Assembly (NCBI RefSeq): GCF_036960685.1
Contig: NZ_JBALXK010000003.1
Span: 244,172 to 308,171 of the forward strand
Source: Pseudoalteromonas sp.
Lineage (GTDB): Bacteria; Pseudomonadota; Gammaproteobacteria; Enterobacterales; Alteromonadaceae
DNA length: 64,000 bases
Reading direction: 5' to 3'
Below, one piece after another: positions 5,725-8,594 of this stretch (position 1 is its first letter; every line of letters begins with the position of its first letter). Position numbers and translations under genes: made by a program. The notes below the pieces were generated by a model. It had not been told where the DNA came from. It saw only the letters and a list, made by a program, of their open reading frames with translations, and made no database searches.

Positions 5725-6414
5725 TTGAATTATTTGGCTCATCTTTATTTAGCAAAACCGACTGCCGACTCACATTTTGGGAATTTACTGGGAGATTTTG
5801 GTGGCCAACGGCAATTAAAACAGATACCCGCAACCGTTAAAAATGCGCTAGATAACCATTATTTAGTCGACAAATTCACTGATTCGCACTCACTTGTAAA
5901 AGAGGCTAAACAATATTTTTCACCACATCGCAAGCGTTTTGCTGGGGTAGCGGTTGATGTGTTGTTTGACCACTTTTTAATTAAGCATTGGCATATTTTT
6001 AATCAGCAACCACTCACTGATTTTAAGCAAACCAGTTATAAGCTTTTGGGTAAACGTATTCCAGTTATGCCAGCAAAAATGCAGCGCGTAGTTACCAGCA
6101 TGATAGAAAACGATTGGTTTAAAGAGTACGAAACTGTTGAAGGGGTGGGATTGGCGCTTGATAATATTGCTGCGCGGATTCGTTTTACTAACACCTTTAC
6201 TGGCGCTGCGGAAGATATTACCCGTCATTACACTGAATTAGATGCTATTTTTTTAGCATTCTTCCCTGAGTTAATTAAGCTTGACCTAGAGGGCTCTCAA
6301 AGGATAAATAAAGTTAGCTTAATAAGCATCAATACAGTCCCCTATAAGCAGGTTAGACTGATTATCGAGGTTGGTATCCTGAGTGTGACTAACTTTTCTT
6401 TATTGCCGATTTAA
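5725..6414 (+). CDS. acpH: ACP phosphodiesterase (AcpH/DUF479) with an apparently extended C-terminus
   Basis: MNYLAHLYLA, GNLLGDF, VDKFTDSH and DVLFDHFL motifs; TTG start with an AGGA RBS. Confidence 0.85.
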   Translation: MNYLAHLYLAKPTADSHFGNLLGDFGGQRQLKQIPATVKNALDNHYLVDKFTDSHSLVKEAKQYFSPHRKRFAGVAVDVLFDHFLIKHWHIFNQQPLTDFKQTSYKLLGKRIPVMPAKMQRVVTSMIENDWFKEYETVEGVGLALDNIAARIRFTNTFTGAAEDITRHYTELDAIFLAFFPELIKLDLEGSQRINKVSLISINTVPYKQVRLIIEVGILSVTNFSLLPI

Positions 6415-6829
6415 CGAGTATAAAACTAATGTATAACAATAATGAAGACGCACCGAATAGCAATAAAGAAATGGACCAACCGAACGGACCTGTTTCGCAT
6501 CCTGTATTGTACTTACAAGCAATTGAAAACGGATCTAAAATAAATTTATAGGAGAACCACATTGTAAACAAAGAAGTAGAAAGTAAAAAAGAGGCTATTA
6601 ATAATTTTGATAATACTGAATTTAAAGCTTTTGGTTCAGATTGTTGCTGATTTTTTTTTATAATGTGTAAAATATAAAAACATCCAAAAGAGAATATAGT
6701 AATTACTAAACTATATAGTACATTAATTACTTTAGGACTAAGAATCGAAAGAAGAACACATACTGCAGCAATTAAGGTTATATAAATTAATTCTGATCGC
6801 AAAACTTTATTTACTCGCGAGCACTGCAT
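6389..6829 (-). CDS. Small 4-TM membrane protein in the low-GC islet (candidate immunity protein)
   Basis: 146 aa with four hydrophobic stretches; very AT-rich; overlaps the upstream gene end. Confidence 0.6.
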   Translation of the reverse strand: MQCSRVNKVLRSELIYITLIAAVCVLLSILSPKVINVLYSLVITIFSFGCFYILHIIKKNQQQSEPKALNSVLSKLLIASFLLSTSLFTMWFSYKFILDPFSIACKYNTGCETGPFGWSISLLLFGASSLLLYISFILVKSAIKKS

Positions 6830-7236
6830 GAAACAACCAGTTCACTACTTTCCCCAGAAGAAATAGAAAAATAAATATTCATTTTCTCGTTATCGTTAAT
6901 TCTTGGAGAGCTTCTAACGCGAACTGTGTCTTTGTTCATTTGTGAAATGATTAACTCGAAAGAGCTAATCCATGGCTTTTGTCGGTCTGTTTGAATAACT
7001 GTTGCCGCTTTTGCCTTTACAACAATTTGATTGTTTTTATAAAGTAGCGCATATTTATTAATATTAGTGGATAGCTCAACTAAGTTACTTCTTAGAATAT
7101 TGGAATCATTGTTTAAATAGCCCTCATTAATCAGCACACAACCAATATTATTTAAAGGAAAAGATTTCGAAAATGAATAATCACTAAATAGTAATAATGA
7201 CAGCACTATAAAGGTATTAATTTTTTTAATAAGCAT
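6811..7236 (-). CDS. Secreted/periplasmic hypothetical protein in the low-GC islet
   Basis: ATG 7236 gives MLIKKINTFIVLSLLLFSDYSFS, which looks like a signal peptide. The track starts the ORF at 7305. Confidence 0.55.
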   Translation of the reverse strand: MLIKKINTFIVLSLLLFSDYSFSKSFPLNNIGCVLINEGYLNNDSNILRSNLVELSTNINKYALLYKNNQIVVKAKAATVIQTDRQKPWISSFELIISQMNKDTVRVRSSPRINDNEKMNIYFSISSGESSELVVSCSARE

Positions 7237-7253
7237 GATTGAAGCCAATAATG

Positions 7254-8033
7254 TTAAGGGTAGAAGATGCCTTTTCCTGGTCGAATATCGTTCGCAATTT
7301 GCCAACGAAGAATTTTTTCTAACTCCCAGCCTTTTCTACTTATTTCACCAATAGTTGCATCTTCTATTTCCCTTAAAATTAGACCAAGCTTTTCAGTAAT
7401 ACTAAAATGCTCATCTAATTTATCTAAAGAGTAAGCTACCGCAAGACCAATAAATATAGCTACAGCCAATGGCAGTGCAGCTATCGTAGTTGTTGTTCCT
7501 ATTGCTACTGCTGCAACAGCCGCAGCTATACTAGATATACCTATTTTTATTAAGGATACAGCCATATCTGCTAGTAAGTTACTAAGTAATATTTCATCCT
7601 CTAGAATATGTTCAAGTATCACAATAGGAACAGTAAAGAAGATAGTTAGTCTTGCGCCTGAACGAACATGTTTTACGATAGCTGAGGTTTTACCTATCGC
7701 CATGTCAACGACACGGGCGTTTTGTGCTGTCTTAGTAAATATTGTTCTAAATTCAAGTTTGCCTTTGAAAATAATGTATTTCTCGCCTCGAATATACTTC
7801 TCATAAACTTGACCATTAACTCCAAGGTCACGAACCATTTGAATGAGAGTTCTGGTATCTAAAGCTGCTGATGCATTACCCGCGACAACTCTACTGTTGG
7901 ATATCGCGCTATTTTTGGTGATTTTATCATGCATCTCTTCAAGTTCATGGGGCTTTAATAAATAAATTACTTGATGATTTTTGCGGATGGCTTCGACTAA
8001 CTTTTTATTATCCTTAACTTGTGAGCTATTCAT
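7254..8033 (-). CDS. Putative membrane-disrupting toxin/effector (Tme-like)
   Basis: YIIFKG...VVDMAIG...GARLTIFF motif block, then Ala/Gly-rich hydrophobic helices and LDKLDEHFSITEKL. Family recalled, not searched. Confidence 0.55.
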   Translation of the reverse strand: MNSSQVKDNKKLVEAIRKNHQVIYLLKPHELEEMHDKITKNSAISNSRVVAGNASAALDTRTLIQMVRDLGVNGQVYEKYIRGEKYIIFKGKLEFRTIFTKTAQNARVVDMAIGKTSAIVKHVRSGARLTIFFTVPIVILEHILEDEILLSNLLADMAVSLIKIGISSIAAAVAAVAIGTTTTIAALPLAVAIFIGLAVAYSLDKLDEHFSITEKLGLILREIEDATIGEISRKGWELEKILRWQIANDIRPGKGIFYP

Positions 8034-8285
8034 GTTTTATCCTTTTAACATTATATATTGATAAATGTACCTAATGTAGAGTTAAAAATCAAGAGTCAGA
8101 TAGTGAGCCGGTTTATAACCTTTAGGTTAGATGAGCATAATTCATAAAGTTTGAAAGCGGATGGCTAAGGTAAACATTTTATTCCACTTTAGGCCAAGCT
8201 TTAGTCTTATAATAATGTTTCTATGACTGAATCGATTATAATTGTCACTATGTTAAAAAATATACGAAAATGACAAAAACCTGAT

Positions 8286-8594
8286 TTAATCATCAGGCCC
8301 TTTGAGGGTAAATACCAAATGCTTGCGCATGTCTTTTAAAATCACGCCTTTTTTAAGCATCGCACCACTTAAGCGTTTTTGCCATTTTAAAAGCTCTGGC
8401 TCTGCGGCGGCTAGTGCCTGTTCATCTTCAAACTGAAAGCACATAAGTAACGAACCCGGAAATAAGTGGTACTCAACATCAAACCAGCATTGCAGCATAC
8501 CTGGGAGTTCATTGCGGCCTTGTTCTTCTATTGTGTCGGCAACATTCAGTACAAGTGCTTGTTGCTTGATTTGCACGGCAGAGAGTTTTTTCAT
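8286..8594 (-). CDS. Hypothetical protein
   Basis: 102-aa ORF with ordinary composition; no motif recognised. Confidence 0.7.
   Translation of the reverse strand: MKKLSAVQIKQQALVLNVADTIEEQGRNELPGMLQCWFDVEYHLFPGSLLMCFQFEDEQALAAAEPELLKWQKRLSGAMLKKGVILKDMRKHLVFTLKGPDD

Follow-up and report, generated by a model that had tools for sequence, protein, structure and literature searches.

A probable orphan type VI secretion effector-immunity cassette of the Tme family in Pseudoalteromonas, with a displaced aspartate and an exported companion

The closest described relatives of the locus reported here are the Tme effectors of type VI secretion systems (T6SSs), whose founding members are Tme1/Tmi1 and Tme2/Tmi2 of Vibrio parahaemolyticus (Fridman et al. 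2020, PMC7046647). A further member, Tme-AIEC of E. coli LF82 (LF82_440), is a 418-amino-acid (aa) protein that joins a PAAR domain to a Tme domain (residues 210-361) with a D301xxK304 motif, a transmembrane (TM) helix at 320-340 and D347, and its partner is the DUF1240-like Tmi-AIEC (LF82_441); substitution D301A abolishes its toxicity and leaves membrane association unaffected, K304A and D347A variants are still toxic, and the protein is toxic only from the periplasm and harmless in the cytoplasm (bioRxiv 10.64898/2026.10.08.757527). Here we describe a three-gene islet in a 64,000-nucleotide stretch of a Pseudoalteromonas genome (contig C33:244172-308171 of a 4.69 Mb genome in 86 contigs; hereafter the window), which sequence comparison indicates is probably an orphan T6SS effector/immunity cassette acquired by horizontal transfer.

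An initial annotation of the window had proposed a horizontally acquired cassette that pairs a Tme-type membrane-disrupting effector with candidate immunity genes. That core was correct and is not in itself new, the toxin candidate being a member of a known superfamily; the features that appear to be undescribed are the shifted motif aspartate, the missing DUF1240 gene, and an exported beta-barrel companion that two short-Tme clades spanning Gamma- and Deltaproteobacteria have in common.

A short Tme-family protein in an inserted islet

None of the three islet products, of 259, 141 and 146 aa, has a significant match in Pfam or NCBIfam, and scans of the three against PADLOC and PHROG gave nothing significant (best E 0.01-0.25). 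The absence of a trafficking domain from the 259-aa protein, asserted in the initial annotation, is thereby borne out, and the sequence features listed there are present: the motifs YIIFKG, VVDMAIG and GARLTIF are all found, and Ala/Gly hydrophobic helices are seen by hydropathy at about residues 148-200, with a Kyte-Doolittle peak of 2.29 in the segment at about 179-200.

With the curated libraries empty, the family assignment was reached only by a profile search of about 1.8 billion representatives. A word-index search with the 259-aa protein returned 33 hypothetical proteins from marine Gammaproteobacteria, 21 of which were aligned to make a profile, A1; at E<=1e-3 this profile matches 885 clusters at 50% identity (1.84 billion representatives searched), PAAR fusions included. 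One of these matches, P0174, belongs to a cluster of Morganella PAAR-domain proteins (PF05488, 2e-13), and its C-terminal 230 residues match A1 at E 1.5e-34. On the LF82 chromosome, A1 gave a single strong match (E 1.9e-35, profile positions 6-230), to a 418-aa PAAR-domain gene (L013:7514-8770) located between tssA and tssF, with a DUF1240 gene next after it; the aspV-linked T6SS, tried as the LF82 Tme locus, proved to be the wrong cluster, and it was the chromosome profile search that found the right one. Alignment with hhalign (99.7%) paired window residues 7-239 with Tme-AIEC 135-382, spanning the whole Tme domain, and BLASTP of the 259-aa protein against Tme-AIEC gave 6e-11. Because the A1 profile, hhalign and BLASTP all match validated Tme-AIEC, we assign the 259-aa protein by homology to the Tme superfamily, in which it amounts to scarcely more than the toxin module; the Tme-type effector of the initial annotation is supported by the same matches.

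The three genes sit in DNA that is foreign to the site (Table 1). They are co-oriented, with 17 nt between the end of the 259-aa gene and the start of the 141-aa gene and a 19-nt overlap between the 141-aa and 146-aa genes, so that the closely spaced or overlapping minus-strand arrangement described initially is reproduced by the open reading frame (ORF) coordinates. G+C content is 33.1% in the islet versus 40.9% genome-wide, and of 4,829 windows of 1.9 kb across the genome no more than 0.5% fall that low; our recount of the 60-base lines 6601-6660 and 6661-6720 gave 13 and 11 G+C, exactly the earlier figures, and likewise reproduced the AT-richness relative to the flanks. Homology to relatives with an empty site stops at about 6273 and restarts at about 8190-8271. 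Only about 50-105 bp separate acpH from the 102-aa gene in two related species of the genus (L038, L039), where the site is unoccupied, compared with about 2 kb in the window. The right-hand flanking gene is present in 40 of 41 genomes of the genus, and on the left the last 12 or so acpH codons have been replaced by islet DNA (6273-6414), giving an ORF of 229 aa versus 197 aa in the L038 and L039 relatives; acpH now extends into the islet by 44 foreign codons, where it overlaps the end of the 4-TM gene, which is on the opposite strand. No integrase, tRNA or flanking repeats beyond chance level were found at the islet edges, and a scan for consensus promoters and terminators returned sites at background level, with no excess over chance.

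Table 1. Coordinates of the islet, its genes and its flanks in the window
Feature	Position	Strand	Evidence or remark
acpH (ACP phosphodiesterase), left flank	5725..6414	+	Pfam PF04336, 4.8e-62, residues 1-183
Inserted AT-rich islet, ~1.9 kb	6275..8190	.	between acpH and the conserved 102-aa core gene
146-aa small inner-membrane protein, candidate second membrane immunity protein	6389..6829	-	four hydrophobic segments (hydropathy)
141-aa Sec-exported companion, candidate periplasmic immunity protein	6811..7236	-	signal peptide; C33 and C137 invariant; predicted eight-stranded all-beta fold
259-aa short Tme-family candidate membrane-disrupting effector	7254..8033	-	motif ADxxxSxxK versus family DxxK; helix ~179-199; D207
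Cassette 5' region inside inserted DNA	8034..8190	-	AAGGA ribosome-binding site 8 nt before ATG and TATAAT-like box, read from sequence
Conserved 102-aa core gene, right flank	8286..8594	-	terminator-like hairpin 8302-8275

An orthologue of the islet toxin is absent from all 36 sampled species of the genus (0/36), the best same-genus match among them being a 294-aa canonical Tme protein (E 1e-53). Together, the empty sites in two relatives, the low G+C and this absence from sampled congeners support the horizontal acquisition proposed initially. The cassette is found outside that sample in Pseudoalteromonas ostreae hOe-66, which has the same three genes at the same site and a toxin of 97% aa identity. 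Relative to P. ostreae, the toxin shows a ratio of nonsynonymous to synonymous differences per site (pN/pS) of 0.08, and the two downstream genes one of 0.29 each; all three islet genes are under purifying selection, and it is strong on the toxin. In the same comparison (6389-8594 versus L046, P. ostreae hOe-66), pS of the three islet genes is 0.18-0.24 versus 0.56 in the adjacent 102-aa core gene, which, in so small a sample, hints that the islet was exchanged between the window and P. ostreae lineages after their split.

Related cassettes occupy unrelated chromosomal sites in Marinomonas, Vibrio campbellii, Agarivorans, Vibrio sp., Thalassomonas and Photobacterium, and cassette G+C is below that of the flanks in 13 of 14 related loci. 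The V. campbellii cassette (JBLWDZ010000063.1; L002:7051-10211) lies between two complete yggT copies of 96% DNA identity, which suggests that homology-facilitated recombination brought it in, along with a yggT flank, from a related Vibrio.

A displaced aspartate in the family motif

When the window protein is aligned with Tme-AIEC, K163 pairs with K304, D207 with D347 and S160 with D301, and the 179-199 helix falls on the TM helix at 320-340; S160-L-I-K163 thus stands opposite D301-V-G-K304, so that the near-invariant DxxK of the family is missing and its lysine is kept. The register of this motif alignment is secure because the stretch from the Arg of GARLT to the motif Lys is ungapped, at 35 residues in both proteins. 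Across 200 aligned stretches of family members, the DxxK aspartate position holds D in 167 and the D207 position holds D in 182. A non-Asp residue at the motif position (Ser/Thr in 24 cases) combined with an Asp at i-4 is seen in 26 of the 200, among them the whole clade of the window protein (hereafter the window clade), and 2 further stretches carry both aspartates. In the shifted motif, ADxxx[S/T]xxK, the upstream Asp is invariant within the window clade and lies one turn upstream on the same helical face.

A FastTree phylogeny of a 175-column core places the shifted sequences in one clade (24 tips, support 0.98) that adjoins a clade of equally short proteins with the canonical Asp, the sister clade. 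As judged from these alignments, the window clade is a derived monophyletic lineage in which the Asp of DxxK is displaced upstream by one helical turn; this shift is the main departure from the definition of the Tme family.

Such a change could mean that the window protein is a detoxified or repurposed Tme-like protein, one that joins the exported beta-barrel protein in a membrane complex with a different role in the envelope. The loss of Tme-AIEC toxicity on D301A substitution would fit this, as would the Ser or Thr that replaces the equivalent residue in 24 of the 26 shifted-Asp sequences and the absence of DUF1240 from all 10 window-clade loci. Against it, however, the Asp at i-4 is invariant, on the same helical face and confined to a single derived monophyletic clade, and selection on the gene is strongly purifying (pN/pS 0.08). 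The patchy, islet-like distribution at differing sites, with low G+C and no orthologue in the 36 congeners, is moreover typical of competition cassettes and not of housekeeping genes. We regard loss of toxicity as very unlikely, and retain the 259-aa protein as a candidate membrane-disrupting effector.

Tme proteins are widespread; to our knowledge none has a solved structure, and D301 of Tme-AIEC is the sole residue with a demonstrated essential role. The window clade keeps the other hallmarks of the family under strong purifying selection with the Asp moved by one turn, and so provides a natural test of the role of this residue; the outcome would inform both the choice between a residue that lines a pore and one that drives insertion, and the importance of its position on the helix face.

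The extreme C-terminus of the protein is also conserved. It reads G-K-G-I-F-Y-P (window 7254-7275), with G253, G255, F257 and Y258 invariant in both short clades; other marine Tme branches (L008, L018, L021, L024) end in a similar [LIF]-F-G-[VIL]-P, and Tme-AIEC is unaligned there. This tail might be a loading or recognition signal.

Two downstream proteins predicted to face the periplasm

Both downstream products are predicted to face the periplasm, one as a Sec-exported beta-barrel of the disulfide type, with two cysteines, and the other in the inner membrane. The ORF at 6811-7305 would encode 164 aa from a TTG, and the ATG at 7236 opens the signal-peptide-like MLIKKINTFIVLSLLLF and a product of 141 aa, matching the secreted protein of about 141 aa named in the initial annotation; the 4-TM protein named there is equally recovered, with its four hydrophobic segments.

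The exported companion has a mature length of about 105-120 aa and two invariant cysteines across window-clade loci, and lies directly downstream of the toxin in 10 of the 10 that have downstream sequence. Companions of the window and sister clades are homologous (hhalign 92.5%, E 5e-7), and a joint alignment of the two clades conserves C33, C137 and F93. The AlphaFold2 model of the companion is confident (pLDDT 90.4, pTM 0.77) and consists of a signal helix followed by eight beta strands. Foldseek of this model against the PDB gave no convincing match (best E 0.077); weak fold matches to the TbpB-handle, lipocalin-like and other small barrels, at TM<=0.41, were not taken as evidence. A companion profile search of PDB sequences gave 0 matches, and none of 18 companions matched any Pfam family, PF06836 (DUF1240) included. 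Word-index searches with the companion and the 4-TM protein returned near-identical proteins only, and the diversity of both was taken from loci of toxin homologues.

The 146-aa protein carries a Cys-x6-Cys...GP[FY]GW loop between TM3 and TM4, which is most likely periplasmic. A small gene for a protein of three to four TM segments with the C...C..GP[FY]GW loop is present in 8 of 10 window-clade loci; the 4-TM protein, as the second gene downstream of the toxin, is missing in the other 2. Its similar Cys...GW loop made a diverged DUF1240 protein a candidate identity, which we reject on two results: none of 10 members of the 4-TM family matched PF06836 at E<=1, and hhalign of the family against two DUF1240 sets gave 0.2-0.3%, compared with 92% for a DUF1240-versus-DUF1240 control. 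No DUF1240 gene occurs in any of the 10 window-clade loci, and DUF1240, which the initial annotation had named only as a family to test, is matched by neither downstream gene of the window. In Marinomonas sp. A3A (L001:9218-9649) the 4-TM gene is kept in frame but unannotated, with no ATG, GTG or TTG in its first 30 codons, reflecting either an unusual start or decay.

Which of the two products would be the antidote is suggested by how the companion is distributed. In Agarivorans litoreus and Vibrio sp. vnigr-6D03 the locus consists of toxin and companion only, with no room for a third gene. A metagenome search with the sister-clade companion alignment found 12 loci, 8 of them with a toxin upstream (one cut by a contig end); in two others (L073:2508-3055 and L071) the companion is intact and only a 27-codon DUF1240 remnant lies upstream, with no Tme gene. 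A companion kept after loss of its toxin behaves like orphan immunity genes. Next to the orphan companion lies a gene for a 261-aa protein that is peptidoglycan-binding and amidase-like by eye, no family search having been made. Elsewhere in the genus, Tme branches have DUF1240-type genes only and no companion, as does the LF82 locus. Because no locus of either clade lacks the companion, which in two genomes is the only partner and which outlasts the toxin where that is lost, we favour it as the conserved immunity element, a choice that has at best an even chance of being right.

The companion may instead be an accessory, for example in folding or assembly of a membrane immunity protein, or a hitch-hiker, leaving the 4-TM protein alone to give immunity. 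The sister clade, where a canonical DUF1240 gene already follows the toxin directly and the companion comes third, is in keeping with this, as is the finding that every Tmi protein proven so far is a membrane protein (PMC7046647). It accommodates less easily the Agarivorans litoreus and Vibrio sp. vnigr-6D03 loci, where toxin and companion stand by themselves, the status of the companion as the only partner conserved in both clades, and its survival intact where the toxin and most of DUF1240 have been deleted. We consider an accessory or passenger role somewhat unlikely, and continue to treat the companion as the favoured immunity element.

A tentative extension of that preference is that the short Tme lineage uses a three-part system, in which the exported two-Cys beta-barrel would be a new class of periplasmic immunity or co-immunity protein; the window toxin would have escaped DUF1240 through the Asp shift, DUF1240 would have been lost or replaced by the unrelated 4-TM protein, and the companion would have become the primary antidote. 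This possibility, if true, would amount to a natural case in which toxin and immunity coevolved through a register shift in a residue key to the pore or to insertion, and would provide a soluble handle for a first structure of a Tme protein bound to its inhibitor. Apart from it, the companion, which is predicted with confidence to be soluble, may give structural studies of a hard-to-handle toxin a binding partner that is easier to work with; as a candidate, it widens the kinds of immunity against membrane-disrupting T6SS effectors beyond DUF1240 and is usable for annotating orphan immunity genes in marine metagenomes. Three hypothetical proteins now become nameable in Pseudoalteromonas, Vibrio, Photobacterium, Marinomonas, Thalassomonas and Agarivorans.

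Delivery and comparison with described systems

A tblastn search with E. coli T6SS proteins found no T6SS gene on the window contig, in agreement with the initial annotation, which had left the delivery route of the toxin unclear. The cassette is indeed an orphan, but the route is now much less unclear: a full T6SS is encoded elsewhere in the genome, on contig C44, and the sheath protein TssC is encoded in 18 of 19 genomes that carry a short Tme gene. The C44 cluster runs through tagH, tssJ, tssK, tssL, tssM, tagF, pppA, tssA, tssB, two tssC genes, impE, tssE, tssF, tssG, clpV, hcp, vgrG and PAAR to an Rhs gene. The same E. coli queries matched nine Tss core proteins there (B, C, F, G, J, K, L, M and ClpV/TssH) together with VgrG and PAAR, and Pfam confirmed Hcp, TssE, VgrG, ImpE and the Rhs protein; tagH, tagF, pppA and tssA are named from position and size only. 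Within the cluster (C44:108,450-139,620, part of which is covered by L063), the two tssC-like genes are in tandem, and next after vgrG-PAAR come two genes (342 and 286 aa) and an Rhs protein of 1,613 aa, probably a further effector with chaperone or immunity genes.

The 18 TssC-positive carriers comprise the window genome, Agarivorans and 16 of 17 others, against a background of 28 in 60 relatives. In the genus, 6 of 8 genomes that share the T6SS type of the window genome have Tme-family genes, compared with 0 of 28 others, an association with a hypergeometric p of about 1e-5 when phylogeny is ignored. Orphan status is ordinary for the family, because Tme1 itself has no recognisable delivery domain and about 30% of Tme genes have no T6SS neighbour, and 77% of Tme genomes have a T6SS (PMC7046647); in about 70% of members a T6SS gene lies upstream or a PAAR, MIX or ImpA delivery domain is fused.

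We propose that the islet is, with good probability, a T6SS effector/immunity cassette that works as follows. The toxin would be made in the cytoplasm, where Tme proteins would be harmless, and the C44 T6SS would take it up as cargo on its Hcp/VgrG/PAAR spike and deliver it to the periplasm of neighbours. From that side, its Ala/Gly-rich hydrophobic helices would insert in the inner membrane, and the membrane potential would collapse. One or both downstream products would protect sister cells, with the companion as the conserved partner and the 4-TM protein as an accessory or replacement membrane immunity protein.

Several observations weigh against this proposal. No trafficking domain and no adjacent adaptor, VgrG or PAAR gene was seen in about 22 loci examined; one carrier, Marinobacter caseinilyticus, is without TssC; neither downstream protein falls in a known immunity family by the Pfam and hhalign tests; the residue equivalent to the essential D301 is Ser in the window protein; and the AlphaFold2 model of the toxin, built from 21 sequences, is of low confidence (pLDDT 59.5). 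Secretion, toxicity and immunity in the window clade are, besides, all predictions from sequence.

The first two of these points would also suit a module that is independent of T6SSs, that is, a toxin-antitoxin or abortive-infection depolariser, or a holin-like protein acting in the producer, held in check by two envelope proteins, or else a toxin with some other exit route: the cassette is an orphan in every locus examined, and its toxin is without a PAAR, MIX or VgrG domain. The islet proteins, however, match nothing in PADLOC or PHROG and the toxin is clearly homologous to PAAR-fused T6SS effectors, and TssC accompanies the short Tme genes in 18 of 19 carriers as opposed to about half of relatives. 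Both partners, in addition, face the periplasm, fitting a toxin that comes from outside, and Tme-AIEC is harmless in the cytoplasm. A module of this kind is therefore improbable, and delivery by the C44 T6SS is the reading we prefer.

The same genome has a second Tme/Tmi locus, on contig C7 at about 89,750-93,150 (L008:7758-11148), between glmU and siderophore genes. Its Tme gene is split by a 1-nt frameshift (114 and 171 aa; an intact 314-aa orthologue is found in L024), and it further contains two tandem DUF1240 genes, an N-terminally truncated Tme gene (198 aa) and a third DUF1240 gene. The locus resembles a toxin array in decay that has kept its immunity genes.

Compared with described systems, the window cassette shares with Tme-AIEC homology that covers the Tme domain in full and extends some 75 residues upstream of it, the lysine, helix and downstream Asp, and the placing of immunity genes (candidate ones in the window) downstream in the same operon. 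It differs in its architecture, since Tme-AIEC has an N-terminal PAAR and lies inside the T6SS-1 cluster whereas the 259-aa window protein has no added domain and is an orphan, in having S160 with an Asp at i-4 in place of D301, and in its partners, an exported beta-barrel protein and an unrelated 4-TM protein as opposed to the 3-TM DUF1240 protein of LF82. The likeness to Tme1 and Tme2, drawn from their description and not from aligned sequences, lies in their stand-alone form, with no recognisable trafficking domain, their marine gammaproteobacterial setting, their depolarisation of membranes from the periplasm and the membrane immunity genes downstream; by the same description they differ in their canonical DxxK, their DUF1240-like immunity and the lack of any described exported companion. 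The founding paper remarks that for some of the proteins encoded downstream there is no connection to DUF1240 (PMC7046647).

Serratia Ssp6/Sip6 and Pseudomonas Tse4/Tsi4 are pore-forming T6SS effectors with immunity proteins that are not in the inner membrane. They share with the window cassette the concept of a periplasm-acting depolariser neutralised by an exported protein, but no relation in sequence or fold was found (no Pfam matches, and no PDB match for the companion).

Another close system is the sister short-Tme clade of Desulfobacteraceae, Thiodiazotropha, Oleispira, Agarilytica and Marinobacter (loci L043-L062), whose toxins are likewise of about 259 aa, end in G-x-G-I-F-Y, show 37-43% identity, and are encoded in orphan loci with the same exported two-Cys family. 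Its motif is the canonical TDLVK, in contrast to the shifted Asp of the window clade, and gene order differs as well: toxin-DUF1240-companion in the sister clade (12 of 12 loci, with DUF1240 status resting in most of them on homology to Pfam-positive members), and toxin-companion-4-TM in the window clade.

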